64,000 nt of DNA from an uncultured Methylomirabilota bacterium (GTDB taxonomy: Bacteria; Methylomirabilota; Methylomirabilia; CAVQYV01). The stretch covers positions 16,482 to 80,481 of the forward strand of contig CAVQYV010000003.1 of NCBI GenBank assembly GCA_963718295.1. The letters are read 5' to 3'. The translations under genes and the position numbers were made by a program. Of this stretch, positions 6,489 through 57,274 are shown piece after piece (positions within the stretch are counted from its first letter, which is position 1; the number at the start of each line of letters is the position of its first letter). The notes beneath the pieces are model-generated. The model searched no databases. It was not told where the DNA came from and saw only the letters and a list, made by a program, of their open reading frames with translations.

Positions 6489-7302
6489 TGGGTGGCCTCC
6501 GTACGCGGGGAACATAAGAAAACGGCTCACCCCACGCATAGGGCAATCTCGCCAGTGTGGGTGGGGATTCGGACGATACAAGTAATCCCAATACATCCCG
6601 CAATATGGCTAACTGACCATCTCGGTCGTGGGGTCTGCCGAATGGATGGGCCATGGGGAAATCGAGGAATGCCGCCCGAGGCGGGCGGATAACTTGCATC
6701 ACATCCAACATCAGCCCCACGAAGGTCGTAGAAAGCCCGTGCTCCTCGATGCCCCTCGCGATCAGTCCAACGGACTGATGATCGTGGGGTCAGCCAGGAA
6801 TCAGCAGCACTGCGTCGGCCCCCTGCTTCTTGCACCGTTCTGCCAGGTCTTCAGCCACCTCCCCTTCCAACTTCTTCGGACTCTCAGGATCGAGCCAGCG
6901 CCCGATGCCCATCGAGTAGGCGATCGAACAGAGGCCACCGATAAATTCTGCTTCCTCCAATTCCTGCAGCCTGCCCAGGGGGAACAGACAGTTGATGTCT
7001 GCCTCGGCGTCCGCCTGATCGAAATAACCGTAGCGGATCACCAGATCTGCCTGCGGGGTATGCTTGGGGATCTCCCGGATGCTCAAGTCATCGTGGCCGC
7101 GAAAGGCGAAAGGTGTCTGGTCGCGGTGATAGATGCCCGCGGAGCATACCAGCGCCACCTTGCATTCACCAAGCGGCTTTGGAAAGGATGTCCACGGATT
7201 GCCCCTGGGCACGTAAAGCGGATAGTCAATCTGGTGATGACTCCTATAAAACGCCTGAATGATCGGGAGGTATTCGATGGGCGCCATTTTTTCCCCTTTC
7301 AA
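6478..7302 (-). CDS. Glycine/sarcosine/betaine/D-proline reductase B-family (GrdB/PrdB-like) selenoprotein, about 274 aa, with in-frame TGA = Sec at 6790-6792
   Basis: ORF 6790..7302 (...KVALVCSAGIYH...DINCLFPLGRLQELEEAEF...GADAVLLIPG) and ORF 6478..6720 are in the same frame. A single TGA separates them. Read-through gives ...LLIPG-U-PHDHQSVGLIARGIEEHGLSTTFVGLMLDV...ILRDVLGLLVS...LPYAW, which resembles PrdB around the Sec position. A hairpin starts 11 nt after the UGA. Confidence 0.6.
6761..6779 (-). promoter_or_regulatory. Putative bacterial SECIS hairpin (AUCAGUCC-GUU-GGACUGAU) downstream of UGA
   Basis: Perfect 8-bp stem. The apical GU sits at positions 22-23 counted from the U of UGA, close to the fdhF-type spacing. 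Confidence 0.5.
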
Positions 7303-7424
7303 ATCAAAGAATCCTGGTTGGCCTTCTTCAGCGCTTCCGCCTAAGCCCCTGGTTCCAGTGCCTTCAATGCCTCCGGTTTGGTTTCAACTGTATTGCCTTC
7401 CCTCTCCTTGTGCTCCCTTTGCGC

Positions 7425-8753
7425 TTAGTGCATGATTGCCTGATAGGTCAGGACCCGGAACCTCTCGTCCAGATCCAGGTGCCGGTTGGGGCGGATCTGC
7501 GTCATCATGATCCCGATCAGGTGCTCCTGGGGATCGATCCAGAATCGAGTATAGAAGAAGCCGCTCCAGTTATACTCCCCTTTCGATTCAATCCTGCCCG
7601 ATCGGTTCGGGTCTTCCAGAACGGCAAAGCCGAGCCCGAACTTATAGCCTGGATCCCGAAGGAAGACATCCAGCTCGCCGATGTGGTTCCGCCTCATCAG
7701 CTCCACCGTCTTGGGACCCAGTAATTGAACGCCCTCCAGCTTCCCTCCGTTGAGCAACATCTGCAGAAATCGCACATAATCGGCAGCAGTGGAAACAAGT
7801 CCCGCTCCTCCGGAGAAGTAGGTTCGTGGACCCTTATAGTGCCAGCTCGACGAGAAGAACACCGGCCCCATCCTCACCGGCTCTTCAGGCAGCTTGTCTA
7901 TTCCTCCTTGCTCATTGGGCGTATAGACGGCGGAAAAGCGGGCAAGCTTCTCCTCCGGCAGGAAGAAGTGGGTATCCTTCATGGCCAGCGGCTTGAAGAT
8001 ACGCTCCTCAAAGAATAGATCCAGCGGAATCCCCGACACTACCTCCACCAGACGGCCGAGCACGTCGGTATTCAGGCCATACTCCCAGGCCTCCCCCGGT
8101 TGATTCATGAGGGGCATCATGGCGATTCTCTGGACTCCCTCAGCAATGGTCCCCTCGGTCTGCACCAGGCCATCCGACATGCCCGCCTTGGTATACAGCG
8201 AATACAAGTGCTTGCGGCCCCAAAAGCCATAACTGATTCCGGAGGTGTGGTTCAGGAGGTGACGAATGGTGATCTCCCGTTTGGCGGGGACCAGATGAAA
8301 CTGGTCCTCCCCCGGACCATCTGAGACGAGGACGACGGCGTTCTTGAATTCCGGAAGATACTTGGAGACCGGATCATTGAGGAGGAGGAGGCCCTCCTCC
8401 ACTAACATCATGACCGCCACCGAGGTCACAGGCTTGGTCATGGAAGCAATGCGGAAGATCGCATCATGGCTCATGGCTTTGCCCTCGTCCATCATGCCAA
8501 AGCTCTTGCAGTAGGCGATTCTGCCGTGCCGGGCGATCAGGGCTACCACGCCCGAGACCTGTTTTCGGTCCACGAAATCTTGCATCAGCCCATCCACCCG
8601 CTCCAGGCGATGGCAGGAGAGTCCCACCTCCTCCGGTGATGCGCTCGGGAGCCCCTGGCCCCAGACATGAGGGGCGAGCAGCAAGATAGCCAGGAAGAAC
8701 AGGGCCATAAAAGCAATGCCAGTTTTCGTTTTCTTCATTTCGGATTCCTCCAT
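7425..8753 (-). CDS. Secreted serine hydrolase, beta-lactamase/transpeptidase-like (class C-like) family
   Basis: 442 aa with an N-terminal signal-like hydrophobic segment. It has the S-x-x-K motif (SMTK) and the typical PBP/beta-lactamase fold pattern. Confidence 0.85.
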   Translation of the reverse strand: MEESEMKKTKTGIAFMALFFLAILLLAPHVWGQGLPSASPEEVGLSCHRLERVDGLMQDFVDRKQVSGVVALIARHGRIAYCKSFGMMDEGKAMSHDAIFRIASMTKPVTSVAVMMLVEEGLLLLNDPVSKYLPEFKNAVVLVSDGPGEDQFHLVPAKREITIRHLLNHTSGISYGFWGRKHLYSLYTKAGMSDGLVQTEGTIAEGVQRIAMMPLMNQPGEAWEYGLNTDVLGRLVEVVSGIPLDLFFEERIFKPLAMKDTHFFLPEEKLARFSAVYTPNEQGGIDKLPEEPVRMGPVFFSSSWHYKGPRTYFSGGAGLVSTAADYVRFLQMLLNGGKLEGVQLLGPKTVELMRRNHIGELDVFLRDPGYKFGLGFAVLEDPNRSGRIESKGEYNWSGFFYTRFWIDPQEHLIGIMMTQIRPNRHLDLDERFRVLTYQAIMH

Positions 8754-10853: not shown

Positions 10854-12827
10854 TAGCCCATCTTCCGCAGTTTGCCTTTGATTTCCCCTAAATCCACTCG
10901 GATTCCCTGCCCCAAGGCCCATGGAATCAACCTTTGATTGGCAGAAAGGGGATGTAGTGCAGAAAAGCCCCTTGTCGCAGGACCGTGGATTTCGGATAAT
11001 GTCATCGCCATGTATCTGCGACGCCACGACAAGAAGGTGGATGGGGAACACTATGGCTACTGGTCCTTGGTGGAGTCGGTCCGGACAGCTCGAGGGCCTC
11101 GTCAGAGGATCGTAGCGACCATCGGCAAGCTTCCCGGTCTGGATCAGGAAGAGCGGATCGGCTGGGAAGAGATCCGGCGGATCCTGGAAGGCAAGGCGGC
11201 GCAGCCGAACCTTTTCTCACCCTATGCCGAGCCGCCCTTATGGGCTACGGTCGATATCAACAAGGTAAGGGTGGAGCGGCTGCGCCATTTCGGCGATGTT
11301 TACCTGGGTCTTCTGTTATGGAACAAGCTCGGTTTTGCCGAGTTCTGCAGAGGGCATATGACCGAAGGCCGGGAGGAGATTCCTTGGTCCGCTATGGCCT
11401 CCATCCTGGTTCTGGCTCGTTTTTGTGCCCCTTCCTCCGAGTTGCAGATTGCAGAATCGTGGTACGATAAGACGGCTCTCGATGATCTTCTGGGCGTCCC
11501 GGGGGAGAAGATCAACGAGGACCGGCTCTATCGGGCCCTCGATGCCCTTTGGCCCCATAAAGATGAGTTATGCAGACATCTTCAAGCCCGTTATGGGCGA
11601 GCTCTTCGGCTCGACCTTCGACTTCCTCTTCTACGACATCACCTCCACCTATTTTGAGGGGACGCACCGGCAAGCCGCAGGAAGAGGGTACAGCCGGGAA
11701 ATCGTCCCGATTGTCCCCAGGTGTGTATCGGCCTGGTGGCAACGAAGGAAGGATTGCCCATTGCCTTTGAGATCTTCGACGGCAACCGTCCCGATGTCAC
11801 CACGACCCAGGAGATGGTGCAGGTGATGGAGGCCAAGTACGGCAAGGCGAACCGGGTGTGGGTGCATGGACCGGGGCATGGTGAGTGAAGACAACCTGGA
11901 ATTCATGTGCGCTCAGGGGCCCGATACCTGGTGGGCACCCCCCGATCCCTCTTGAGGAAGTTCGAACAGCACCTTCTGGACCAAAGCTGGGAGGAGGTGC
12001 AGCCGGGGGTTGAGGTCAAGCTGTGCCCTTCCCCCGAAGGGACGGAGGAGGTGTTTGTTCTGTGCCGATCCCGGGGACGGAAGGAGAAGGAGCATGCCAT
12101 CCTCGACCGCTTTGTAAAGAGGCTGGGAGAGAAACTGGCGAAACTGGCCGAGCGAGGCGAACAGGGCAAGATCAGAGATCAACAGAGGGTGGAGCGGCAG
12201 ATCGGACGGCTTCTGGAACGGAACAGCCGAGCCGCCTCCCTCTTCACGGTCACCGTCACGAAAAAGGAGACTCGCCTTTCTATCGACATTCAAAGAAACG
12301 AAGAACGATATGAATGGGCCGTGGAAACCGGCGGCAGCTACCTTTTGCGTACCAACTGGAGGGAGACCGATCCGAAAGTCCTGTGGAGCACCTACATTCA
12401 GCTTACGGAAGTGGAAGACGCCTTCCGCACGATCAAACATGATCTGGGAATGAGGCCGATCTTCCATCAGAAGCAGGCCAGGACCCAGGCTCATATCCTG
12501 GTATGCTTTCTTTCCCTCGTATTGTGGCGGAGCCTGCAGCAGTGGATGAAGGCATCAGGCCTGGGTACGGCTCCGAGAAAACTCCTGGAAGAGATGAGGG
12601 AACTGAAATCCCTCGATGTCCTCCTGCCTGCAAGGGATAAAACCATCAGGCTGAGGGTAGTGGCAAGTGCCCCACAGGCCCTCAAGGTGCTGCTTCAAAG
12701 GATGAAGATCCTGCTTCCCAATCAGGCCAAGAATCATCGAAAATGTAGTGCAGAAAAATGCCCCATTTCCATCGTAACTATTCTAAATTTACTCGTTTTG
12801 AAATTTATAACTGCGGAAGATGGGCTA
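10854..12827 (+). mobile_element. IS1634/IS4-family-like insertion sequence (1974 bp) with perfect 19-bp terminal inverted repeats
   Basis: IRL tagcccatcttccgcagtt at 10854-10872 is the reverse complement of aactgcggaagatgggcta at 12809-12827. The interior encodes a transposase with YWSLVESVRTARGPRQR and FDFLFYDITSTYFEG motifs. The subterminal direct repeat atgtagtgcagaaaa occurs at both ends. No clear short TSD. Confidence 0.65.
11010..12775 (+). pseudogene. IS1634-family (IS4-like DDE) transposase, disrupted by four frameshifts
   Basis: The coding sequence is distributed over frames 3 -> 1 -> 3 -> 1 -> 3. Frame changes occur near 11590, 11690, 11866 and 11918. Conserved blocks are KPVMGELFGSTFDFLFYDITSTYFEG, RPDCPQV.IGLVATKEGLPIAFEIFDGNRPD and MDRGMVSEDNLEFM...ARYLVGTP. 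The listed ORF runs on to 13052 through IRR and beyond. Confidence 0.7.
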
Positions 12828-12924
12828 GAGATGTCTGCCTCCAAGAAGCTGCACGCCGACAAGGAGCGGAGCCAGGGACACATCCCATTCCACTCGGAGC
12901 CTCGCGCGGAATCCGAGATGAGAT

Positions 12925-12940
12925 TTGAATTCGAATTCAA
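12925..12940 (+). promoter_or_regulatory. Perfect 16-bp palindrome TTGAATTCGAATTCAA (possible operator)
   Basis: Self-complementary 16-mer about 100 bp outside IRR and 270 bp upstream of the lytic transglycosylase gene. Confidence 0.2.
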
Positions 12941-13206
12941 TGGGGTGTGTTTCCTTATACTCAAGAGTTGCCAGCCATTGATGGCTTGCTTATTGCACAA
13001 CCCCGGCACTGTCCACAAGTCACTGGCGAGAAGGCTTCATGCGATCTGCTGAGCGATCCGAACGTGGATTGCCCTGGTGATTGCCGCCTCCAAACGGATT
13101 TGAAGCTTACAGAAATGGGTAGGCGTGTACCCAGGGGCAGACAATGCATCGCACGCCCCTGCGAACGGGAGCTGCGTAAAGACCAATGGAAGGGGGAACA
13201 ACCTTC

Positions 13207-39352: not shown

Positions 39353-40208
39353 ATGAATCGCGCCACCCGTTCACTTTCACTTGCAGCCATGGCGGCATGC
39401 GGGTTTCTCACCACCCTGGCCTTCCCGGGTATTCTGGGACCGGGGAATTACAGTACCCCAAACGGGGTCATATCGCCGCCCCCCGTGGATGCAAAGACCC
39501 TGCATGAGGTCCCCTCCGACGGATACCGGGTCCTTGCAGCCTATCCTCACGATCGAGCCGCCTTCACCCAAGGGTTGGTCTTTGAAGATGGCTTCCTCTA
39601 TGAAGGGACAGGCCTGAATGGGCACTCCTCCCTCCGAAAGGTGGCATTGGAAACAGGAGCCATCCTGAAGCGGCGCGACCTGCCCGCTGAATTCTTCGGC
39701 GAGGGGATCACCATCTACCGAGACCGGATCATTCAGCTGACCTGGCAATCCCATGTCGGATTCCTATACGATAAAGATAGCTTTGAGCTCATAGGGAAAT
39801 TCAGCTATCCCACGGAGGGCTGGGGAATCACCCATGATGAAAGGCGTCTCATTGTAAGCGACGGTACAGCCACACTGCATTTCTTGGATCCCGAGACCTT
39901 CGCGGAAATCGGTCGAATTGAGGTCCGCGATCGTCATGGGAAGGTGTTCCGACCTCAATGAGTTAGAGTACGTCAAAGGCGAGATCTACGCCAATGTTTG
40001 GCAAACCGACCGCATCGCAAGGATCTCTCCTGCGTCGGGCAGGGTGATAGGATGGATCGATCTAGTGGGACTCTTGGGGCCAAAAGACTGCGAAAACCCA
40101 GTTGATGTCCTCAATGGCATAGCGTATGATGCAAAGCACGATCGCCTGTTTGTGACTGGAAAATTTTGGCCAAGGCTTTTTCAGGTTGACCTGGCTGCTC
40201 CGAAATGA
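39353..40208 (+). CDS. Glutaminyl-peptide cyclotransferase (plant/bacterial QC, PF05096-like) with an apparent frameshift near 39945
   Basis: The frame-2 part has YTQGLVFEDGFLYEGTGLNGHSSLR...FGEGITIYRDRIIQLTWQ...EGWGITHD. The frame-3 part has LNELEYVKGEIYANVWQTDRIARI...VLNGIAYD...DRLFVTGKFWP. The frames switch at ttcc/gacc. Confidence 0.7.
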
Positions 40209-40265: not shown

Positions 40266-40706
40266 ATGGCCATATTCCGTGATCGTCCGTACGGCAATGC
40301 CCGATTCTCGGTCGAGGTGAACGACTCAAGGCTGCAGGACGTAATCGAGGTCCATCTCCCGGAGATGGCAATCGACCTGGGAGAAATCCGAGGGGGAGAC
40401 GCGATCCCGTTATCGAGTCACAAATTTGCGAGAAGGCCGCGTCTCGGCAACCTCCTCCTCAAGAGGGGATTTCGGGGTTCCTTGGATTGGTACGAGTGGT
40501 GGAAGCAGGCTGCAAGCGGAGACCCTGACCCCTATCGCACCACGATAGTCTCTCTGTTGAGCGAGGATAGGTCAGCGGTGGTGGCCAGATGGAAGCTCAA
40601 AGATGCCTTCCCAGTTCGTTACTCCTATTCCCCACTGGACGGAACAGATGGAGGCATCTTCGTCGAGGTGATCGAGATCGCCTGTCAAGACGTCGAAATG
40701 GAATGA
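40266..40706 (+). CDS. T4 gp19-like phage tail tube / eCIS tube family protein (TIGR02241/PF06841-like), orphan
   Basis: 146 aa. MAIFRDRPYGNARFSVEV...KFARRPRLGNLLLKRG...DWYEWW...IVSLLSEDRSAVVARWKLKDAFPVRYSYSPLDGTDGGIFVEVIEIACQ matches conserved blocks of Pvc1/Afp1/gp19-type tube proteins. No sheath or baseplate genes are nearby. Confidence 0.6.
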   Translation: MAIFRDRPYGNARFSVEVNDSRLQDVIEVHLPEMAIDLGEIRGGDAIPLSSHKFARRPRLGNLLLKRGFRGSLDWYEWWKQAASGDPDPYRTTIVSLLSEDRSAVVARWKLKDAFPVRYSYSPLDGTDGGIFVEVIEIACQDVEME

Positions 40707-40781
40707 GAATGGCACGAAATCGATTGCAAGACCTGGTTACAAGGTGGCTACGACGTCGATTAGATTCCTCAGGAACACGCC

Positions 40782-41357
40782 ATGACAGCTGAAATCGGGA
40801 TGAGAGAGAACGACCAAGAGCGGTTTGAATTGGCTCGCTGGCTGATTGGGAGATATGACCGACTTCTCTCATCGACAGCCACTGGTTCCGCTGTTGTTTT
40901 GCTCACCGATGGCCTGCTGCTCTTGGCGGTAACCCTCCTGGTGGGAAAGACGCCATCGGCTGGCCTTCCATTCTATACCACGGTGGATCTTCTTTTCGTG
41001 GTCTGTGTGGGGGCGACGGTCTTCCTTCTCTTTCTCTCTATCTTTTTCGCTTCTTGGGCCATTGCTCGGCCTCGGATCGAGAGAGGCGAGGCAGGGGAGG
41101 ACGGCAATAGGCAGGGTATCTTGTTCTTTGATTCCCGGGGCACGGCAAGGGCATTTCGGGAACTGAAAGACTTCGAGGAGGCGTTCAGGGACGCCACCCG
41201 GGAAGAGATGATCCACCATGGCCTGGCGGAGCTCTTCTCGGTCATCAGGGCTGACCATCACCGCAACCAAAGGCTCAAGCAGGCCATTTTACCCTTGCTC
41301 ATCTCCCTGGCTCCATTCTTAGGATCCATCATGATATTGCTCGTCCGATCCCTCTGA
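40782..41357 (+). CDS. Hypothetical 2-TM membrane protein
   Basis: 191 aa. The N-terminal amphipathic helix is followed by two hydrophobic helices (VVLLTDGLLLLAVTLLVG; LLFVVCVGATVFLLFLSIFFASWAI), then a charged C-terminal helical region. Confidence 0.5.
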   Translation: MTAEIGMRENDQERFELARWLIGRYDRLLSSTATGSAVVLLTDGLLLLAVTLLVGKTPSAGLPFYTTVDLLFVVCVGATVFLLFLSIFFASWAIARPRIERGEAGEDGNRQGILFFDSRGTARAFRELKDFEEAFRDATREEMIHHGLAELFSVIRADHHRNQRLKQAILPLLISLAPFLGSIMILLVRSL

Positions 41358-46978: not shown

Positions 46979-49900
46979 TTACCCCTGTATCGGCTCCTCA
47001 TCATCCCAGCCAGGCTCGGTTGCTGCAGTCGTTACCCAGCCCACAGTACCCCGGTAATCAATCCTCTGCCACTTTATGCCCTCCAACTCCTGGGATCCCT
47101 CCAACACCGTGACCTTTGCTTTCGGCGGGAGATAGCCCACGGGAAACGTGGCCGGTTCGTTGAAGACAGCGCTGGACCACCCGTGGTGCAGTTTCTTCTC
47201 GTCCCTCGCAAGAAGCTCTGGTATCCTCGCTTGGAACTGTCGAAATTCATCGCCATCCAACAAGCTCTCAACTTCATTTTTGCTGGGTAGGCTCGCGAAA
47301 CGAGCGGCGATGAATTCTGGTACAGGACTGGCCTTCATGTGAACAACCGCGTGCGGTTCCTCCCTTTCCTCGTATAAACAGAATACTTGCATATTGTGAT
47401 CGATCTTTTCAATCTCTAAGACATGTTCATGTACCTCTCTTGGCTCCATTGTGTCTACGTTGTCAATAACCTCCCAGTGGCTGAATGTCTTCTTTCCATA
47501 GCGTGGTGGTGCGCTAAGCTGAACACGCGTGCCTCTGGGGTAGATTCGGTAGATGTTCCCGTAGCCGTTGCCGCGTCCATTCGTATCGTCTGGAGAGCAC
47601 TCAAGCAACGGAACATGTCGCCCATGCATACGCACATCCAGGACGCAATAGTTGTCATCAGCCACAGTCCAGTTGAGAGACCATTTCAGAATCACGGACT
47701 TGAGGACCGGCGCGTGCACATGGCGCGCAAAACGCACTTTGATGTCAGTCCAAGCGGCGGGTTGGGCAATCTTCTCCTGAATTGACTTGTTTGTATTTCC
47801 CAGCAGGGAATCCAACAACTCCAGAGAAGCCTGGCTCGGGCATATCCGGTCCACCTTCTTCTTGCCGCCAAAGTGGTATGTCACGCCCCAGATCTGCTGC
47901 GAGTCCTGCCCCATGGTGGCGCTGCTTGCGGATGTGGGATGGCGTACCACATAGAGGGCGTTGCCTGCGCGCATGGTCCCATCGCCCAAGGGCTCCAATG
48001 TAAAGTCCACGCTGCCGCTTTCCGGGGTTGGTTGGCCGTCGGGTTCAAAGTCCAGTTCTTCAACTTCAACGTCCTCGATCCTGACCTTCTCCGCTCGAGG
48101 CAGGATGCAGTTGAAGTCTCTCAGGTTGATGACGGCTTCACCGGTGGCATTAAGCTGAGAGATAATATCGGGAGTTTGATCGGCCGACAGCCGAATCTGG
48201 AGATGGCCCGTGTATTCCGGATGGAAATTCGTTTTCAGTTTGTCTTCAATCTTGCGCAGTTCTGATTTGAACAACGGGGCCAGCGTATCGGCGATTTTGA
48301 TTAAGGCGCCGCCGATCTCCTGTCCTGCGAGCAGGGGAGTGATTTTGTCGAAAATCCCGGTCAGATGGAAGTTGACTGTAATCGGCTCGATCACTGCATA
48401 CTCGTAGCACTTGGCGAGGTAATATAGATACTTGACTAGCATGAAACGGGCATTTTGGTCCATATTCTTGGCGTAGAGGAGAGCTTCGTGGTCGAGAATA
48501 GACAGTTTCTCGCGTTGTTGGCGCCCCGCCGAACTCACAGCCAGAAGATTTGACGTGACCTGGGAGTAAGCAGATGACAAGCTTTGAAGGCCTTCGGCCA
48601 GTTTCTCAAGGAACTCCGCTTTTCGCACATTCAGCGCTTCCAGGTCGCGCACGATTTCCTGAAAGTCAGGACTCTCCGCCTCAAGTTGCCTGAGTCTGGC
48701 GTCCACTTCACTGTGAGGTACATTGAGACCTGCGATGGAGTCGGTGATCCCTGCGAGCGCGGGGCCGATCGTATTGCCCACATGGGTCAGCGTGGCAGCC
48801 TTGCTCGCAGCATCTTTGGTCTTCGCGTCCCCTTCCTCCTTCGCTGCCTCGACAATGTCAGCCGCTTTGCTTTCCAATTTCGCTTTCGCAACGTCCGCCA
48901 GCAGGCTACTCAGCGGGCCGACCGTTTTGACGGGATCATCGGATTTGATCACATTGTCGGCGATCACCTTGCCGGCAGACCCCAGAGCGCCCAACGCAGG
49001 CTGCCCGTAGGGGATCACCTGGCAAAGGGCGGAGATCGTGCTGACTCCAAAATTGATCCACGCCGCTGCGATAGCTTTGTCCTCGGCCTTATTCATCAAG
49101 TCGGTTCGCTTGTTGCCCAGCTTTACCATAAGCCCCGCTATTTCCTGTTCCAATGCCTGGGCCTGCTCTCTAAGCTTCCTAAGGTTGTCCTTCTCTCCCT
49201 CGATTCTTTTAAGCTCCCTCTCAGTTTCCCTGTTCAATGTATCAATCGACTCGCCCGCTATTGCGGTTGCTTCCTGCGCCTGTGCGGCCTTTTGCTGAAT
49301 CCACTTCGCAAGCGCCAGCGTCCTGATTCCATGGTTCACCTCGTCATCATACATTTTAAGGCATACCGGCAGGGAAAACAGAGGGGTCCAGCCTGAGGGA
49401 TTCCCGAAGTAATCAAGGTGGCTTTCGATCCGATGCAGCAGCGTGGCCAATTCGGTCAGGGTCTGATGATAAAGCGATTCGTTAAACCCAATGCCAGACC
49501 GTTCTATAATCGGTCTAAATTCCGAGGTTGACGGCGGCGACTCCAGCGCGGTTATGTATTCTTTCAATAATGGCGCCATTTGCTCCATCTTCCCCGGCGA
49601 CATCAGGTAGGCATCGCGGACATATAACAAAAACGTCTGGAGCGATGATGGGTGCAGCCACGCATTCCCGAAATCTTGAACGCTATTTGTCTCACGCTTT
49701 CCGTATGTTCCTTTCTCCTTTTTCGCAATTGGAGCTTCAAAGCTTTTACCTTCTTTTGTTGTGCGCTTGTCGATTTCACGACACCAATGCCCATGCAACC
49801 CGCCCACAGGATCAGTATAACATCTGATATCGTATTTTGCGCTTTCATACGGAGACCCCCGTTTTCCCCCAACAACGTCCTTGGCTCTTTCACCAGCCAT

Positions 49901-51217
49901 TTCGCCGGAGGTATCGACGATGTCACTTGGCGCGGCCAACTTTTCGGTTGCAGAGGCCACTTTCTGATCAGCCATCTGTACAATCAACCTTATCTGCTGA
50001 ACGTTCTGTTTGATGCTAGCCGCATTCTTCCGCTCATAGGGAATTCTGCCCTCCAAAAAATGGCCCGCTTTCGTCAACACAATTTGGGTAAACTCCTTTG
50101 CCTCAGCAAATGCGGCTGCCAGTGTTGGCTCTGCCGCCTCGGCCGCTTGTTGTGCGGCGGATATCGCCTCCTCGGACTGTTGCAGCAGTTCTTGCGTATC
50201 TTTCACCGCCTGCAGAAACTGTTCTTTCTGTTCGTTGCGGGAATATTTTGCGATTCTTTCCAGGCTTTTCATGCTTAGAAGTGCGGCCTCAACCGATTTC
50301 TTCGCAGCATGCGCCTTTTGGCTTGCCTCTGGTAACCCCTTCCTATCTCTGCCAAATTCCAATGTTTCGATGGCCCACAATGGAAATACACCGGAGAAAC
50401 AGCCGCCGTCCCCACCATCGCCCGGTTTTCCGGGCTCCTTTGCATCCGTGCCGTCTTTCGGCCACTCGTTGCATCCCCATGCCCACGTGTCTCCTGTTGC
50501 CCCGTGCGGACCCCAAATACAATCTTCAAGATGCCAATACACAGCAGGGGGGTTAAAGGAATACTTTAAATGACCATATGTTGCTTCATTCGCATAATCA
50601 ACGTTCAAGCGGAGTTCATTCCCATCGCTACCGTTCTCCCCCGCATGAGCAGCTTGCCCCTTTCCTCCGCGCAGACAGAAGTGGTTGTCCTTTACGTGGT
50701 CGGTTTCGAACTCATAGACATATACAGAGATGTTGCCCGCCGGTCGGCCGTGTGTGCCTTCATTCCCCTCAGCAGCCCTCTCGTTGCCATAGGGTAATGG
50801 ACTCGTCATAATGCGTCCGGGTCTGCCATGTTGTTCTTTGAACACCAGCTTGCGCGCAAAGATATACACATCTGTTTCCGGTAAGCACAACTCTCCACTG
50901 ATAACCAGTTCATCAGCGCAGATTGTTAGTTTCCGGATCGTTCCTTTCGGCGATGGTGCGTCAGGTAGCTTGTTCTCCTTCGGATCTTGGTGATAACTCC
51001 GGAACAGACCGTTGACATCATCCTCCTTACTAAACAGCACACGCATGCCGGAGATCACATGATTCTCTGAATCGTCTGCATTCTTCTGCTTTGTAATGGT
51101 GACATATAAAGAACTTGATGGGTCCGGCAGGTCGGGGTAATGGCTAACATAGTCTCGTTCGGGCTTGATTTCTGGCATTTGAAGTTCTTGTGGGGTTTCC
51201 ATTTCCCATCCCTCCAT
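46979..51217 (-). CDS. Giant uncharacterised protein (1412 aa), long central coiled-coil/alpha-helical region, C-terminal SH3b-like domain
   Basis: Uninterrupted ORF in a lower-GC island. The N-terminal ~300 aa are Gly-rich (GKPGDGGDGG). The central ~700 aa are Ala/Glu/Lys-rich with heptad-like periodicity. The C-terminus reads AKVTVLEGSQELEGIKWQRIDYRGTVGWVTTA (SH3b-like). No signal peptide. No Walker motifs seen. Confidence 0.75.
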   Translation of the reverse strand: MEGWEMETPQELQMPEIKPERDYVSHYPDLPDPSSSLYVTITKQKNADDSENHVISGMRVLFSKEDDVNGLFRSYHQDPKENKLPDAPSPKGTIRKLTICADELVISGELCLPETDVYIFARKLVFKEQHGRPGRIMTSPLPYGNERAAEGNEGTHGRPAGNISVYVYEFETDHVKDNHFCLRGGKGQAAHAGENGSDGNELRLNVDYANEATYGHLKYSFNPPAVYWHLEDCIWGPHGATGDTWAWGCNEWPKDGTDAKEPGKPGDGGDGGCFSGVFPLWAIETLEFGRDRKGLPEASQKAHAAKKSVEAALLSMKSLERIAKYSRNEQKEQFLQAVKDTQELLQQSEEAISAAQQAAEAAEPTLAAAFAEAKEFTQIVLTKAGHFLEGRIPYERKNAASIKQNVQQIRLIVQMADQKVASATEKLAAPSDIVDTSGEMAGERAKDVVGGKRGSPYESAKYDIRCYTDPVGGLHGHWCREIDKRTTKEGKSFEAPIAKKEKGTYGKRETNSVQDFGNAWLHPSSLQTFLLYVRDAYLMSPGKMEQMAPLLKEYITALESPPSTSEFRPIIERSGIGFNESLYHQTLTELATLLHRIESHLDYFGNPSGWTPLFSLPVCLKMYDDEVNHGIRTLALAKWIQQKAAQAQEATAIAGESIDTLNRETERELKRIEGEKDNLRKLREQAQALEQEIAGLMVKLGNKRTDLMNKAEDKAIAAAWINFGVSTISALCQVIPYGQPALGALGSAGKVIADNVIKSDDPVKTVGPLSSLLADVAKAKLESKAADIVEAAKEEGDAKTKDAASKAATLTHVGNTIGPALAGITDSIAGLNVPHSEVDARLRQLEAESPDFQEIVRDLEALNVRKAEFLEKLAEGLQSLSSAYSQVTSNLLAVSSAGRQQREKLSILDHEALLYAKNMDQNARFMLVKYLYYLAKCYEYAVIEPITVNFHLTGIFDKITPLLAGQEIGGALIKIADTLAPLFKSELRKIEDKLKTNFHPEYTGHLQIRLSADQTPDIISQLNATGEAVINLRDFNCILPRAEKVRIEDVEVEELDFEPDGQPTPESGSVDFTLEPLGDGTMRAGNALYVVRHPTSASSATMGQDSQQIWGVTYHFGGKKKVDRICPSQASLELLDSLLGNTNKSIQEKIAQPAAWTDIKVRFARHVHAPVLKSVILKWSLNWTVADDNYCVLDVRMHGRHVPLLECSPDDTNGRGNGYGNIYRIYPRGTRVQLSAPPRYGKKTFSHWEVIDNVDTMEPREVHEHVLEIEKIDHNMQVFCLYEEREEPHAVVHMKASPVPEFIAARFASLPSKNEVESLLDGDEFRQFQARIPELLARDEKKLHHGWSSAVFNEPATFPVGYLPPKAKVTVLEGSQELEGIKWQRIDYRGTVGWVTTAATEPGWDDEEPIQG

Positions 51218-51496: not shown

Positions 51497-52114
51497 TCAG
51501 AACACACCAATTCTCAGTAGATGCTTATTGTGCAATTTCGTCAGCAGGATGATTGCAACAATCGAGCCTATCAGACAGAGAAACATATCGCTTTGTGTAT
51601 CCCAGATGTAACCCTGTGTTCCAAGAAAGGCTTCTGTGTCGGTCGGATCGGAAAGGGAGGCCAGCCATTCAATAATTTCGTATACTGCCGAAAAAGCCAG
51701 AGGTACAGCGACAGATACAACACCAAGCCACTTGCCGCGCCTGAGAGGTGATGTTCGCGCCATGATCTCACGCGTATATATTGCCGGGCCAAAACCCTGC
51801 ATGAAGTGCCCGATCTTGTCGTAATTGTTACGAGTCCAGCCAAACCAATCTTCCATCCAAAAGCCTATCGGGACTCTGGCGTAAGAGTAATGGCCCCCCA
51901 ACATTAGGATCATGGCGTGGATTGCGATAAGAGTATAGGTTAAATTCGTCAACGGAAATCTATTATATGTAAACAGTAAAACCGGTAAAGCAATCATGAA
52001 CGGGAAGGTTTCCAATACCCAGGTGAGGCGGGTATCATGCGGCTTAATTCCCGACCAAACCCAAAAGACCAATACTATTATCAGCAATATCATGCGATAT
52101 TGATTGGATGACAT
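51497..52114 (-). CDS. DUF2238 (YjdF-like) inner-membrane protein
   Basis: Start MSSNQYRMILLIIVLVFWVW after a GGAAAGGAGG RBS. Multi-TM. Resembles the YjdF family. Confidence 0.65.
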   Translation of the reverse strand: MSSNQYRMILLIIVLVFWVWSGIKPHDTRLTWVLETFPFMIALPVLLFTYNRFPLTNLTYTLIAIHAMILMLGGHYSYARVPIGFWMEDWFGWTRNNYDKIGHFMQGFGPAIYTREIMARTSPLRRGKWLGVVSVAVPLAFSAVYEIIEWLASLSDPTDTEAFLGTQGYIWDTQSDMFLCLIGSIVAIILLTKLHNKHLLRIGVF

Positions 52115-52159
52115 GCAGTACCTCCTTTCCGACACCTCTATGTTTGATCGGCCCAAGGG

Positions 52160-52260: not shown

Positions 52261-52333
52261 ATGGCTTATGCTTTTCACGTTGTCCGCCCTCAGGGGCTGA
52301 TCCCCTTGCCTCCCTTGCTATCGAATCGCCCGT

Positions 52334-53197
52334 TCAACCCGGCTGATTGGGATTTGGAAGAAGCCCGAGAACTTCGCTTGCCTTAGCCTGAAAACTCAGA
52401 CTCCTATCTCTCAAATCCGGTGGCACCTCGGGATAATGTGGATTGATCCGCACCAGGTGGGCCCCTGGTGTCAGTTTTGCCAGCCGTTCGCATGGCCAGC
52501 GCACCCACACCGGTGTGCTAAGGCCCGACCCGATGTCAATGACCAGAAGTCTTTTGCCCGCCAGATTGCCAATCCATCGATTGAGCCTTCCCTCCCCTTC
52601 CATCCAGGGCCTTTCAACGAACCATCTTCCTCCGCGAACATTGAGAGAAATGTTGCCCCTACAACGGGGGCACACAGGGTAGCGGCCTTTCGGCAGAGTG
52701 CCGGTCTGTTTGTCAATCAACGGCAGGTATTCTTCAAGGACCGGTTCCAAGGGGTAGATATCCTGACTGCAAGGGGTCAAGCATTGGTGAAAGGCGTAGT
52801 CCCCCTGAGGCGTGAAGGTTCGTTCTGCAGGAAAACCGTGTCGGACGAACAATGCGTCCACATTCGTAGTCAGAACGAAGGTGTCCTTCCTTTCGACCAG
52901 TCTGAGCAGGGTTTTGTAGATTCCCATCTCGACCGGTCCAAAACGGACTTCCGCAGCATGGGACAGGTAATAGCCCAACAAAAGTTCCTGGGGGAGGTCC
53001 GTCACTCCCATCATCATCAATTTGTTGCGATAGCCAAGCCCGTAAAGCCCTGGATATTTCTTGGCAAAGGAAGCCTCGTCGGTATAATCAACTCCGGCGT
53101 CGGCGGAGAGGCCCGCACCGGCGCCGATAAGAACCGACTCGGACGCATCAAGCCAAGCAGAAAAACGTCCTATTTTTCCATCAAAGGCACTTCTCAT
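52334..53197 (-). CDS. SIR2-family (sirtuin) NAD-dependent deacylase/ADP-ribosyltransferase
   Basis: GAGAGLSADAGV (the GAGxS motif), TTNVDALFVRHGF (catalytic N, D and H) and Zn ligands in CLTPC...CPRC. The start was chosen at M 53197 to avoid overlap with the macro gene. Confidence 0.8.
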   Translation of the reverse strand: MRSAFDGKIGRFSAWLDASESVLIGAGAGLSADAGVDYTDEASFAKKYPGLYGLGYRNKLMMMGVTDLPQELLLGYYLSHAAEVRFGPVEMGIYKTLLRLVERKDTFVLTTNVDALFVRHGFPAERTFTPQGDYAFHQCLTPCSQDIYPLEPVLEEYLPLIDKQTGTLPKGRYPVCPRCRGNISLNVRGGRWFVERPWMEGEGRLNRWIGNLAGKRLLVIDIGSGLSTPVWVRWPCERLAKLTPGAHLVRINPHYPEVPPDLRDRSLSFQAKASEVLGLLPNPNQPG

Positions 53198-53207
53198 GGG
53201 ACGTCCC

Positions 53208-54119
53208 TTATGGGTGACTCTCGGCCAAGACCTTGCAGTAGGTGTCATAATCACGTTTCGAAAAGAGGTCAAAAACCACCAGATCGAATCTTCCCGGATG
53301 GTCCAGCAACCATTGATCCACCGTTTTTACTGCGATTCTGGCCGCTGGCATGGCGGGAAACCCAAAGACGCCGGTAGAGATCGAACAGAACGCGATGCTT
53401 CGAATTGCCGAAACCTCTGATGCGAGATCTAGACACGCACGATAACTGCTTGATAGAAGTGCTTTCTCATCCTCGGGGATGTTTTCCGGGTTCCCATGGA
53501 AGATAGGACCGACCGTGTGCAGAACGAAGCGGGAGGGCAAATGGTAAGCCCTTGTGATCTTTGCCTGCCCAACTTCTTCGGAAGAACCCTGAATCCCCAT
53601 GATGATAGCCGTATCCTCTCTCAGCCGTGGGCCGGCGGCAGCGTGAATGGCGTTATCTACGCAGGCATGAAAAGGCTTGAAACACCCCAAAAGGGCGTCA
53701 TTAGCTGCGTTGACAATACAATCCACCTTCAATCCTGTGATGTCTCCTTGCCACAGAGCCCCCAGCTTCCCGGATAAGAAGCCGGGACAATCCGGAAACT
53801 GCTCCGAGATCCGGGGCAGAGACCCCGGATAGAAGGGAGGGATCAGCGCCCTTTCATAGGCCAAGAGCCCATCCAAAGTATTGAGACAACCTGAAGGAAA
53901 CGGAAGGGGGGGTCTCGAAATCAGGGTGGCATACAAGGATTTTCGGGGCGTGCCATACTTCTCAATAAGGACGTTCTTTTCCCTAACTGAGGTCAGATCC
54001 GAAAGAAGACGATCGATCAGATGGGGAATATCCGATGGGGCAATAGCGGGGCCTTTGGGAATGAAAGTTTCGTCAAGATGGACAATGCCCCGATAATCAG
54101 AAAGAAGAACTCTTTTCAT
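53208..54119 (-). CDS. Macro-domain protein (ADP-ribose / O-acetyl-ADP-ribose processing) with an ~110-aa N-terminal extension
   Basis: GDITGLKVDCIVNAANDALLG ... SIAFCSISTGVFGFP are macro-domain signature regions. It lies immediately upstream of the sirtuin gene on the same strand. Confidence 0.8.
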   Translation of the reverse strand: MKRVLLSDYRGIVHLDETFIPKGPAIAPSDIPHLIDRLLSDLTSVREKNVLIEKYGTPRKSLYATLISRPPLPFPSGCLNTLDGLLAYERALIPPFYPGSLPRISEQFPDCPGFLSGKLGALWQGDITGLKVDCIVNAANDALLGCFKPFHACVDNAIHAAAGPRLREDTAIIMGIQGSSEEVGQAKITRAYHLPSRFVLHTVGPIFHGNPENIPEDEKALLSSSYRACLDLASEVSAIRSIAFCSISTGVFGFPAMPAARIAVKTVDQWLLDHPGRFDLVVFDLFSKRDYDTYCKVLAESHP

Positions 54120-54210
54120 AGATTACCTTCAACAGCAGAATGCGAAAACACCGATTGAGTTCACCATCCTTTTCTTTCGTGGTGGTCTGACCCCTCTTTC
54201 TCCACTTTCT

Positions 54211-54828
54211 CTACCGTCCCACGCAGATGGACCCAATAACCAACGCTTTTCCTCCGATGATCAAGGAAGCCCAGTTCCCGAAGGAGTCCGCGAATCGCTC
54301 CATTCTTCCCGACAGGATGAGATATCCTTCCGCCCATTCTCGTGAAGGATAAACGTAAACCCTTACGCCGCCCAGGGTGGTGCCGTGGATTTCCAGAGAG
54401 GATTTGAAGTACCTCACCTGACCATTGACCTTCAGGTAACAATCCCCTCCTGCGCATCGAAAACGAATATAGACACATTCAAGGGGGCCAATATCGAAGG
54501 CAGCTCCCAAATGATCCAGTAGCAAACCCCTCCCCCAGCCTTGAGTCTGCCTTTCATCCACCACGCTTGCAGTCCCTGAGAACCAAAACCCGGAGGGCAT
54601 TTCATAGGGAAGGATTCTCATAAGGAATCCAGGAGGGCTTTGGATGATAGCTGAGTCTCCGCTGGGGACGATGAGCTCGACCGGATCGATGCAAGGCACA
54701 GCTTGGGCATCGGAGATCATCAGATTCGTCGGCTCGCCGCCAAAGACCGCCATCAAGGCTAAAGCGCCTATAGCCCACCCCCATCTATGGGGATGCCGGG
54801 TGCCGTGGAAAGGATATCTGCTCTTCAC
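54211..54828 (-). CDS. Hypothetical protein, possibly GNAT-fold (weak), with an N-terminal hydrophobic segment
   Basis: 205 aa. RQTQGWGRGLLLDHL resembles GNAT motif A (Q/R-x-x-G-x-G/A). Otherwise unassigned. Confidence 0.4.
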   Translation of the reverse strand: MKSRYPFHGTRHPHRWGWAIGALALMAVFGGEPTNLMISDAQAVPCIDPVELIVPSGDSAIIQSPPGFLMRILPYEMPSGFWFSGTASVVDERQTQGWGRGLLLDHLGAAFDIGPLECVYIRFRCAGGDCYLKVNGQVRYFKSSLEIHGTTLGGVRVYVYPSREWAEGYLILSGRMERFADSFGNWASLIIGGKALVIGSICVGR

Positions 54829-55761: not shown

Positions 55762-57246
55762 TCACCTCCTCTCCGGCGTCTCCCCGCGCTGCAGAACGAC
55801 CGCCCTCCGGTCAATTTGGTTGATGAGCCCGCTGAAGATCAGTCCATGAATGGGATAAAGTCCATACCAATACAGCAGCCCCGACAACCCCTTGGGCCCG
55901 AAGATGGCGGTCTGTGAAAGCAAACACCCTCCATTGGCTCGGGGCAACAACTGGAACTGCAGCCAGGCTTTGCCGGGCAGCTTCATCTCAGCCCGCAGGC
56001 GCAATAGATGAGGCGGTTCGAGGGCTTCCACTCGCCAGAAATCCAGGGCATCGCCCACGCGAAGGCCGTCGGGGTCCCTTCGCCCCCGGCGGAGCCCCAC
56101 ACCGCCCACCAGGCGATCGACAAGCCCGCGCACCTCCCAGGCTCCATTCAGAAAGAGCCAACCCCGATCGCCTCCCATCCCCATAATCACCCGGTAAACC
56201 ATTTCCGGTGGGGCAAGGACGATCTTTTGACGCTGCTCGGTCACTATGCCCTCTTTCGCCGAAAGGGTGACCGGCGGGACGTCGCCCTGGCTGATACAGA
56301 GGGCATCGCACCAGGAGGTCTCCACCTCCCCCGCCTCCAATTTCGCCAAGGCCCGCTGCACCGCAGTTCGATAGTCCGCAGGTTGGATGTGGGGGAAAAG
56401 CTGCCGGGCAGCAGGGTCACGGACGATGTTCTCATTGCGCAGGCCCTGGATCAGTGGCCGTGCCATGGATGCCGGAATGGGGGTGACGAGATTCACCCAG
56501 TAGGAGGACAGGCGAGGGGTCAGGACTGAAACGGGTAGCATCCACCGCTTTAGGCCTCGTTCTTGGGCATAGATCATCATCATCTCCCGGTAGGTGATGA
56601 TGTCGGCCCCTCCTATCTCGATCGTCCGGCCCCGGCTTTCCGGCACTTCCAGGGCGGCAACCAGGTAATCCAGCACATCCCGGATGCTTATGGGCTGCGT
56701 CCGGGTATATACCCAGCGCGGGCAGATCATGACCGGCAAACGCTCCGTCAGGTGGCGGATCATCTCGAAGGAGACGCTGCCCGAGCCGATGATCACCGCT
56801 GCGCGAAACTCGGTCACCGGCACACCCGAGGCGCGAAGCGCCTCGCCCGTCTGCTGCCGGGAGCGGAGGTGCTCCGAGAGGCTCGCCCCAGGGTCTGCCA
56901 GACCTCCGAGGTAGATCAGCCGATCGATGCCGGCTGCCCGAGCGGCAGCACCGAAATTACGAGCGGCAACCAAATCTCGCTGGTGAAAGTCCGGACCACC
57001 CGTCATACTATGTACCAGGTAGTACGCAACCTGCACCTGCTCCATGGCGGAGGCAAGACTCTCGGGACGGAGCACATCGCCGTTCCGGACCTCTACCTGG
57101 CTTTGCCAGGTGCGCCCTTGTAGCCGGGTTGCGTCGCGCACCAGACAGCGGACCTTGTATCCCTTTTCCAACAGATGAGGGACCAGTCTTCCGCCGATGT
57201 AGCCGGTCGCGCCGGTCACCAAGATGAGAGGCTGGGGAGTGTTCAT
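55762..57246 (-). CDS. NAD(P)-binding NmrA/atypical-SDR family protein with a C-terminal DUF2867 domain
   Basis: LILVTGATGYIGGRLVPHLLEKGYKVRCLVR is a Rossmann motif. About 494 aa with the two-domain architecture. Confidence 0.8.
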   Translation of the reverse strand: MNTPQPLILVTGATGYIGGRLVPHLLEKGYKVRCLVRDATRLQGRTWQSQVEVRNGDVLRPESLASAMEQVQVAYYLVHSMTGGPDFHQRDLVAARNFGAAARAAGIDRLIYLGGLADPGASLSEHLRSRQQTGEALRASGVPVTEFRAAVIIGSGSVSFEMIRHLTERLPVMICPRWVYTRTQPISIRDVLDYLVAALEVPESRGRTIEIGGADIITYREMMMIYAQERGLKRWMLPVSVLTPRLSSYWVNLVTPIPASMARPLIQGLRNENIVRDPAARQLFPHIQPADYRTAVQRALAKLEAGEVETSWCDALCISQGDVPPVTLSAKEGIVTEQRQKIVLAPPEMVYRVIMGMGGDRGWLFLNGAWEVRGLVDRLVGGVGLRRGRRDPDGLRVGDALDFWRVEALEPPHLLRLRAEMKLPGKAWLQFQLLPRANGGCLLSQTAIFGPKGLSGLLYWYGLYPIHGLIFSGLINQIDRRAVVLQRGETPERR

Positions 57247-57274
57247 TGCCCCGATATCCTCATTATGGCACTTT

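Follow-up and report, generated by a model that had tools for sequence, protein, structure and literature searches.

A probable minimal SirTM/Zn-Macro operon for reversible mono-ADP-ribosylation in an uncultured Methylomirabilota bacterium

Which reaction does a sirtuin catalyze when its gene directly follows that of a macrodomain protein, and on what target would it act? The question is raised by two adjacent minus-strand genes in a 64-kb stretch of contig CAVQYV010000003.1 from an uncultured Methylomirabilota bacterium (hereafter the window, i.e., the whole 64,000-nt stretch that was analysed). A first-pass annotation of this DNA had proposed, among other readings, a SirTM-type ADP-ribosylation switch with a target different from that of the described systems, and this proposal was supported by the residue triad of class M sirtuins (SirTMs), the motifs of Zn-Macros, and the pairing of the two genes across genomes. 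Overall, the pair is very likely an autonomous two-gene minimal SirTM/Zn-Macro operon, a writer/eraser pair for reversible mono-ADP-ribosylation.

Three open reading frames (ORFs), all on the minus strand, were found at 52334–54828, encoding a 205-aa protein (54211–54828), the macrodomain protein, and the sirtuin. The sirtuin ORF was listed by the program as 52334–53272 (312 aa) with a TTG start; because the homologues have 287–288 aa and align from an internal Met, we reassigned the start to the ATG at 53197. With this start, the reading frames bore out the earlier description: the macrodomain gene immediately precedes the sirtuin gene, both share a strand, and 10 nt separate them. The features of the pair are as follows, where L001 and L002 are the loci of the closest relatives.

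53208..54119, minus strand: Zn-Macro gene, 303 aa, predicted eraser, a zinc-dependent MacroD-type (ADP-ribosyl)hydrolase.
52334..53197, minus strand: SirTM gene, 287 aa, predicted writer, a protein mono-ADP-ribosyltransferase dependent on nicotinamide adenine dinucleotide (NAD+).
53198..53207, minus strand: spacer of 10 nt (GGGACGTCCC) separating the macro stop from the SirTM start.
54120..54180, minus strand: leader of ~61 nt, 5' of the macro gene, kept with the closest relatives in the alignment of the window, L001, and L002.
52291..52333, minus strand: trailer of ~43 nt, 3' of the SirTM stop, the end of the shared cassette (homology to L001 stops at 52291).

A Shine-Dalgarno-like AAGGGA precedes the SirTM gene and spans the macro stop codon, and the leader, where blastn homology to L001 begins at 54180, contains a GAAGG ribosome-binding site 8 nt 5' of the macro ATG. 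A minus-strand promoter scan directly 5' of the macro gene returned nothing convincing; a promoter or operator is presumed to lie inside the ~61-nt leader. No intrinsic terminator was found in a scan 3' of the SirTM gene. The trailer has a short, conserved AGGGG/CCCCU hairpin of ordinary stability (fold z-score −0.17), and the region around the pair, including that upstream of the DUF2238 gene, had no Rfam match.

Relatives of the window SirTM were collected by scanning 185,579 species, each represented by a single genome, for two conserved SirTM peptides, which detected 137 relatives. From these, 80 loci were fetched; some scans took in 86 loci, gap counts cover 82 pairs, and residue counts cover 78 relatives. 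Class M sirtuins are distinguished by Gln137 in place of the catalytic His, by Asn118 and Arg192, by a GVGx[NT]TP motif, and by linkage to a special macrodomain (PMC4518038). In the window protein, Q131 (in PQGD) occupies the catalytic-His position and aligns with HIQGEY of SpySirTM, and this Gln was invariant in each set of relatives aligned (19, 74, and 78 relatives). Together with N112 (78/78 relatives) and R188, it forms a triad equivalent to N118/Q137/R192 of SpySirTM in the alignment with 5A3A. The R188 column was occupied by Arg, His, and Asn in 59, 18, and 1 of the 78 relatives, respectively, which suggests that Arg at the third triad position may not be strictly required across the SirTM family. 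Further motifs were GAGAGLS at 25–31 (GAGAG at 25–29), TTNVD at 110–114 (N112 and D114), and the Cys4 zinc ribbon C139/C143/C176/C179, which was invariant in the 78 relatives. The GAGxS motif, the N/D residues, and the zinc ribbon listed in the first-pass annotation were thus present; the catalytic His listed with them was not, Gln standing in its place. The pyrophosphate motif reads GSGLSTP (223–229); its G.G..TP frame was invariant among the relatives, most of which carry GSGFNTP.

Database and structure searches pointed in the same direction. The SirTM had no match to Pfam SIR2 (PF02146) at E ≤ 0.01 and none among the PADLOC models, and its score with NF001753, an NCBIfam model of deacylases, was 20.8 bits (cut-off 243). 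Using phmmer against the PDB, matches were obtained to the SirTM part of Foc1Mfs1 (8RSN, 2.3e-42) and to SpySirTM (5A3A, 8.3e-19). An AlphaFold2 model built with 74 homologues (mean predicted local distance difference test score [pLDDT] 93.8; predicted template modelling score [pTM] 0.90) has a sirtuin Rossmann fold with the Cys4 zinc ribbon, in a compact 287-aa single domain without sensor or oligomerisation domains. When this model was compared with the PDB using Foldseek, the SirTM structures (8RSN, 1.6e-21; 5A3A, 3.5e-21, TM score 0.86 to 5A3A) were ahead of the canonical sirtuins by ~10 orders of magnitude in E value; SIRT5 was the best of the latter (4.8e-11), and Sir2Af2, Hst2, and others also trailed. 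With Gln131 in place of the catalytic His, the window sirtuin is, judged from its signature residues and predicted fold, a class M sirtuin (SirTM) rather than a deacylating one, and not an ordinary CobB ortholog.

The macrodomain partner is likewise assigned to the family that accompanies SirTMs. Zn-Macros are defined by a Cx(4)HxC zinc loop, an NAAN motif, a Dx3H dyad, and an N-terminal three-helix bundle (PMC11490716). The window protein has NAAN at 137–140, the zinc loop C146-FKPF-H151-A-C153, whose C, H, and C were invariant in 78/78 relatives, and the dyad D155-NAI-H159 (D in 78/78 and H in 74/78 relatives); the zinc loop replaces the glycine-rich MacroD catalytic loop. The Pfam Macro domain covers residues 136–263 (E = 1.5e-30), leaving an N-terminal extension of ~120–135 aa ahead of it. 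Such an extension had been noted at first pass, where its length was put at 110 aa, shorter than the Pfam boundaries indicate. According to both the NF003163 profile and the PDB alignments (SpyMacro 8RSM from residue 57), it corresponds by homology to the extension of other family members. NF003163 (protein-ADP-ribose hydrolase) was the best NCBIfam model, with 255.5 bits and residues 33–300 aligned to profile positions 10–262 of 265, and the O-acetyl-ADP-ribose deacetylase models remained below their cut-offs (NF001664, 149.1 vs 200; NF001660, 126 vs 271). The relatives in the PDB were MorMacro (8RSI, 1.6e-54), SpyMacro (8RSM, 4e-50), SauMacro (5KIV/8RSL, 4e-44), and Foc1Mfs1 (8RSN, 2e-41), all of which are Zn-Macros, MorMacro being from a minimal operon (PMC11490716). 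By its motifs and profile matches, therefore, the protein is classified as a Zn-Macro, and not as the YmdB ortholog that had been named as the alternative.

The two genes form a conserved unit. In 77 of the 80 loci, the SirTM gene is immediately preceded by the macro gene on its own strand, and in the remaining three a contig end interrupts the locus, so that all 77 complete loci pair the SirTM with a macro gene; a pairing that recurs in 77/80 loci is more than chance. The spacing of the two genes (macro stop to SirTM start) had a median of −4 nt (ATGA), and in 62 of 82 pairs they overlap, in most cases by 4 or 8 nt, which fits their being translated together from one operon; the +10 nt of the window is within the normal range of the relatives. 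Pairwise identities of the macro proteins and of the SirTMs were correlated across loci (Pearson r = 0.86; Mantel p = 0.001), and the two genes have therefore been inherited together. According to the record titles, the hosts belong to at least 12 phyla, with a patchy distribution and ~50–55% identity between phyla. They include Thermodesulfobacteriota, Myxococcota, Acidobacteriota, Alpha- and Gammaproteobacteria (notably Competibacter), Actinomycetota (Lentzea, Kutzneria, Actinoplanes, Frankia, and Streptomyces), Cyanobacteria (marine Synechococcus and Sericytochromatia), Chloroflexota, Bacillota (Clostridium ganghwense and Cohnella), Bacteroidota (Chitinophaga), Gemmatimonadota, and Riflebacteria, as well as Promethearchaeota, with one match from a protein search. 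The SirTM family is small, with 144 matches at E ≤ 1e-30 among 1.84 billion cluster representatives; many of these 144 (50%-cluster representatives) are Mfs1-like fusions of 550–700 aa in which the SirTM part is C-terminal.

No third gene accompanies the pair throughout: clustering of the ORFs within 6 kb of it in the 80 loci yielded lineage-specific synteny only. In particular, no GcvH or LplA was detected by phmmer with Escherichia coli queries among the six-frame ORFs of the 64-kb window and of the 86 loci (within 10 kb), in line with the first-pass statement that GcvH-L and LplA2 are lacking here, nor did either appear among the recurrent families in the Pfam annotation of the window neighbours and of 251 neighbour ORFs located within 1.8 kb of the pair in the relatives (145 upstream and 106 downstream). 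The upstream families were SnoaL-like proteins (18 loci, actinomycetes), AraC (9), HxlR (5), LysR (4), Rrf2 (4), and MarR (2) regulators, and NmrA-like (3) and DinB (3) proteins. Among the 106 downstream ORFs, the only recurrent family was a PolB-exonuclease-like gene in five Competibacter loci. In Lentzea and related actinomycetes, clustering showed the macro gene to be immediately preceded by a co-oriented gene for a ~250-aa SnoaL-like protein (15 loci), and a ~2160-aa protein is encoded just downstream of the pair in 11 loci; the loci concerned include L056, L061–L062, L064, L066, L069–L070, L072, L074, and L078–L079. These two genes may represent a lineage-specific extended operon.

How would such a pair work? 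The SirTM is predicted to bind NAD+ through its Rossmann fold with zinc ribbon and, instead of deacylating lysine, would transfer ADP-ribose to a side chain of the target protein and release nicotinamide; the transfer is expected because the protein carries the N112/Q131/R188 triad, the equivalent of which is required in SpySirTM according to mutagenesis. The Zn-Macro would then bind the ADP-ribosyl group and hydrolyse the ribose–protein bond, with the Zn2+ held by the Cx4HxC loop serving as a Lewis acid, as its motif set and the mechanism proposed for MorMacro and SpyMacro suggest. The lipoyl carrier GcvH-L is not expected to be the target, since none is encoded nearby either in the window or in the relatives; presumably, the target is a protein whose gene lies elsewhere in the genome. 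Zn-Macros from minimal operons and fusions do not demodify GcvH-L and instead remove Glu/Asp-linked ADP-ribose, so the target of the minimal form must differ, and Zn-Macros are also the only hydrolases known to cleave Cys-ADP-ribose (PMC11490716). As for the physiological role, the pair would most likely serve in a stress response, oxidative or electrophile, that is inducible; the arguments are the analogy with the Firmicute and fungal systems, the recurrence of HxlR, Rrf2, MarR, AraC, and LysR regulators beside the pair, and the NmrA and DinB neighbours. The redox genes upstream in the window (nitroreductase, NmrA/DUF2867, and nitronate monooxygenase) fit this role and are not conserved among the relatives.

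Several points weigh against this interpretation. The NF003163 score of the macro protein is just under the equivalog cut-off of 272, as expected for a divergent environmental branch. The pyrophosphate motif of the SirTM is a variant of the class form, with S for V and S for [NT]. The enzymatic activities of the pair are predicted from family membership, and the substrate could be something other than a protein. The stress role leans on weak, non-conserved neighbourhood hints together with the Firmicute and fungal analogy. Finally, the search for GcvH and LplA used E. coli queries and covers the window and the flanks of the relatives.

The surroundings of the pair bear on a second question, namely, whether it moves between genomes. 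The closest relative, L001, comes from the metagenome-assembled genome (MAG; CAVXFA01) of an uncultured deltaproteobacterium; its SirTM and macro protein are 91 and 89% identical to those of the window, respectively (90% at the nucleotide level). The window and L001 share only 52291–54180, i.e., the two genes with leader and trailer (~1.9 kb), and no counterpart to the rest of the 19.5 kb of L001 was found in the 64-kb window, whether by nucleotide or by protein comparison. In the window, the pair lies between the 205-aa orphan ORF upstream and the DUF2238 gene downstream; in L001, it lies between an IS200/RAYT-like, tyrosine-transposase-like ORF (6744–7532; named by eye) upstream and a DNA-3-methyladenine glycosylase gene downstream. 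L081–L085, which are 84% identical, have upstream a MarR regulator together with a secreted protein of 297 aa that looks metallo-beta-lactamase-like (by eye), both of which in L081 are directly upstream of the pair on the same strand, the latter bearing a signal peptide; a group II intron reverse transcriptase is encoded downstream in L081 (4292–5614), L082, and L083 (Pfam RVT_1 and GIIM). Because only the 1.9-kb cassette is common and the contexts differ, the cassette is either mobile or situated in fast-changing regions.

The G+C content was 0.47–0.56 over 44–55 kb of the window and about 0.56–0.64 on both flanks, so the lower G+C reported at first pass is real, if modest. The island inferred from it found no support in recognisable borders: no tRNA and no noteworthy flanking repeat, direct or inverted, was found, and no integrase was recognized among the Pfam-scanned ORFs of the window (44–64 kb and selected others; most of 1–37 kb was inspected by eye). 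An integron cassette was also considered, as a GTTGAAC similar to the R' box of attC is located at the SirTM stop; the other border has no such motif, neither an attC-like structure nor an integrase was found, and the idea was dropped.

A more far-reaching reading, which we consider rather unlikely, takes the minimal pair for a self-contained cassette of 1.9 kb that moves horizontally, is widespread among free-living bacteria of at least 12 phyla rather than being special to pathogens, and would modify a conserved cellular component other than GcvH-L. Two versions are possible. The pair could be a general stress switch acting on a redox-sensitive Cys, Asp, or Glu of a housekeeping protein, or it could be a DarTG-like toxin/antidote in which the writer arrests growth until the macrodomain reverses the modification.

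A related explanation, not favoured and to our mind distinctly improbable, is a toxin–antitoxin-like conflict module, i.e., a DarTG analogue in which the SirTM modifies an essential protein or nucleic acid, the Zn-Macro is the antidote, and the cassette spreads horizontally. It would account for the order of the genes, with the 'antidote' first and the two overlapping or nearly abutting (median −4 nt), for the macro gene accompanying the SirTM in 77/77 complete loci, for the patchy occurrence across at least 12 phyla at the identities given above, for the restriction of the homology with the 90%-identical L001 to 1.9 kb, and for the IS200/RAYT-like ORF (by eye) and the group II intron adjoining close relatives. 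However, PADLOC, the library of which should include DarTG-type models by our assumption, matched neither the SirTM nor the macro protein, and defence and mobile-element genes were not enriched beside the 77 relatives. Dedicated transcription regulators adjoin the pair in 24 of ~77 loci, unlike in self-regulating pairs. Moreover, the fungal version is a single fused polypeptide induced by oxidative stress (PMC11490716), and SirTMs have proved highly substrate-specific where assayed (PMC4518038).

It is very unlikely that the genes encode a CobB-like deacylase and a YmdB/MacroD-like O-acetyl-ADP-ribose deacetylase that clears the by-product of the sirtuin, the second reading offered at first pass. 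The sirtuin fold is common to deacylases, the sirtuin matches the deacylase model, if very weakly, and the macro protein has secondary NCBIfam matches to deacetylase models (NF001664, 149 bits). However, Gln131 replaces the catalytic His in 78/78 relatives, SpySirTM loses its activity when the His is restored and SirTMs have no deacylase activity (PMC4518038), the sirtuin lacks a Pfam SIR2 match and reaches 20.8 bits where the deacylase model requires 243, the MacroD loop has given way to the zinc loop, and all deacetylase models scored below their cut-offs. At the level of sequence, this explanation appears largely refuted.

SIR2 domains are common effectors in phage defence, and the sirtuin gene does lie in a stretch of somewhat lower G+C beside rare genes, yet a role of the sirtuin as an NAD+-depleting effector against phages, which was also raised at first pass and would be comparable to those of Thoeris, DSR, or SIR2-HerA, with the macrodomain acting as its sensor or regulator, is scarcely credible here, since PADLOC matched neither protein of the pair and, among the neighbours, only the giant protein described below (a non-significant LmuB-like match), since its matches to the 145 upstream neighbour ORFs of the relatives were sporadic (8 families with at most 2 ORFs each, i.e., no enrichment of defence genes), since the nearest structures are ADP-ribosylating SirTMs and not defence SIR2 proteins, and since the protein is a compact single domain of 287 aa.

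The neighbours in the window can be separated from the minimal SirTM/Zn-Macro operon. The 205-aa ORF upstream, which had been taken for a possible GNAT-like protein, has no match in Pfam, NCBIfam, or the PDB. It has an N-terminal hydrophobic segment and three homologues among 5.8 billion proteins (47–99% identical), which adjoin ABC-transporter genes; none of the three is beside a macro or SirTM gene. It is thus a real but very rare gene, and its membership of the system was rejected, given that it has no family match and that its homologues never occur beside the pair. The giant protein of 1412 aa (46979–51217, minus strand) also has no match in Pfam, NCBIfam, or the PDB. Nine homologues were found among the 5.8 billion proteins (MAGs of Desulfobacterales, KSB1, and Bacteriovoracaceae), and the one in the Desulfobacterales genome CP070697 has an unrelated context; the full-length relatives are 56–72% identical, one distant relative has SH3_3, and another has Laminin_G_3. 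Its central region is coiled-coil-looking, which explains its non-significant LmuB/SMC-like PADLOC match. DUF2238 (51497–52156) is a common membrane protein. A link of the 1412-aa protein or of DUF2238 to the pair was rejected, as neither occurs in any of the 80 related loci; the association with island genes (the giant protein and the 205-aa ORF) suggested at first pass was not supported, neither accompanying the pair elsewhere, and the PADLOC neighbourhood check recommended there yielded no defence match for the pair and no enrichment beside the relatives.

Further 5' of the pair, a run of redox/detoxification-type genes on the minus strand (55762–60587) encodes an isochorismatase-family protein, which is a candidate nicotinamidase, a nitronate monooxygenase, a 4Fe-4S ferredoxin-nitroreductase, and an NmrA-like/DUF2867 protein; the same order was found on contig L086 from an independent sample. 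A 173-aa ORF is also located upstream of the pair on the minus strand. Elsewhere in the window, on the plus strand, 40266–41357 comprises the gene of a T4 gp19-like tail-tube domain protein (146 aa; Pfam E = 3e-20), which stands alone in that no further phage genes were seen around it, and then that of a membrane protein of 191 aa whose PycTM (Pycsar effector TM) match of 24.2 bits is below the cut-off of 27.2. A glutamine cyclotransferase gene (Glu_cyclase_2) at 39353–40208 (plus strand) is broken by a frameshift into two ORFs that overlap, with profile positions 19–165 in one and 167–249 in the other, and is either a pseudogene or the product of an assembly error. Two successive ORFs at 10938–13052 (plus strand) resemble halves of an insertion sequence-type transposase, the first with a weak DUF4277 match, and may be a disrupted insertion sequence.

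Independent SirTM/macro operons are known, and N118, Q137, and R192 have been shown to be required for mono-ADP-ribosylation (PMC4518038). A minimal operon without GcvH-L and LplA2 has also been described already, and the absence of these genes here is thus not novel (PMC4518038, PMC11490716). SirTM/Zn-Macro systems have been characterized as "predominantly present in pathogenic organisms" and studied almost exclusively in pathogens (Staphylococcus aureus, Streptococcus pyogenes, and fungi), and a term search of the supplementary file of the 2024 paper returned no Desulfo-, Myxococc-, Actinoplanes, or Synechococcus entries (PMC11490716). The present analysis goes modestly beyond this literature, in the environmental, multi-phylum distribution of the minimal form and in the 1.9-kb pair alone as a conserved, relocating unit. 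The window locus and its 137 relatives place the minimal form in sulfate-reducer-like and other free-living groups, including myxobacteria, Acidobacteriota, actinomycetes, marine Synechococcus, and Competibacter. That the two genes alone are conserved across all relatives argues that the connection with lipoate and GcvH-L is a lineage-specific add-on rather than the core function, and it sharpens the question of what minimal SirTMs modify. For the window itself, both genes now have a confident annotation, and their neighbours have been removed from the system.

Among known systems, DarT/DarG is likewise a compact, horizontally spread, two-gene combination of an ADP-ribosyl writer and a macrodomain eraser, from which the window pair differs in having no PADLOC match. 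DarT is a PARP-like ADP-ribosyltransferase, the fold of which is unrelated to that of the sirtuin writer, and its target is single-stranded DNA; the DarG macrodomain is of a class different from Zn-Macro, and the gene order differs from macro-then-SirTM. The extended operon found in S. aureus and S. pyogenes (GcvH-L, LplA2, SirTM, Zn-Macro, and oxidoreductases) shares with the window pair the enzyme families and the predicted chemistry, whereas the window neighbourhood has no GcvH-L, LplA2, luciferase-like monooxygenase, or OYE, and the window sirtuin is only ~21% identical to SpySirTM. Fungal Mfs1 (Fusarium oxysporum Foc1Mfs1, 8RSN) is the best solved relative of the window sirtuin (2.3e-42; ~31–40% identity) and resembles the window pair in having the macro part first and no GcvH-L; it is one fused eukaryotic polypeptide, whereas the window has two proteins encoded by adjacent bacterial genes. 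The minimal operon, known from Methanobrevibacter oralis (MorMacro/SirTM), Enterococcus faecalis, and Treponema spp. (PMC4518038, PMC11490716), is the closest. Its known hosts are host-associated or pathogenic, whereas the host of the window is free-living and environmental, and the window has GSGLSTP where the class has GVGx[NT]TP. The two agree in the following features: two genes, macro then SirTM, on one strand and without GcvH-L and LplA2; a macro protein with the zinc loop, NAAN, and Dx3H, whose best solved relative is MorMacro itself (1.6e-54); and a sirtuin with the N/Q/R triad and the zinc ribbon.

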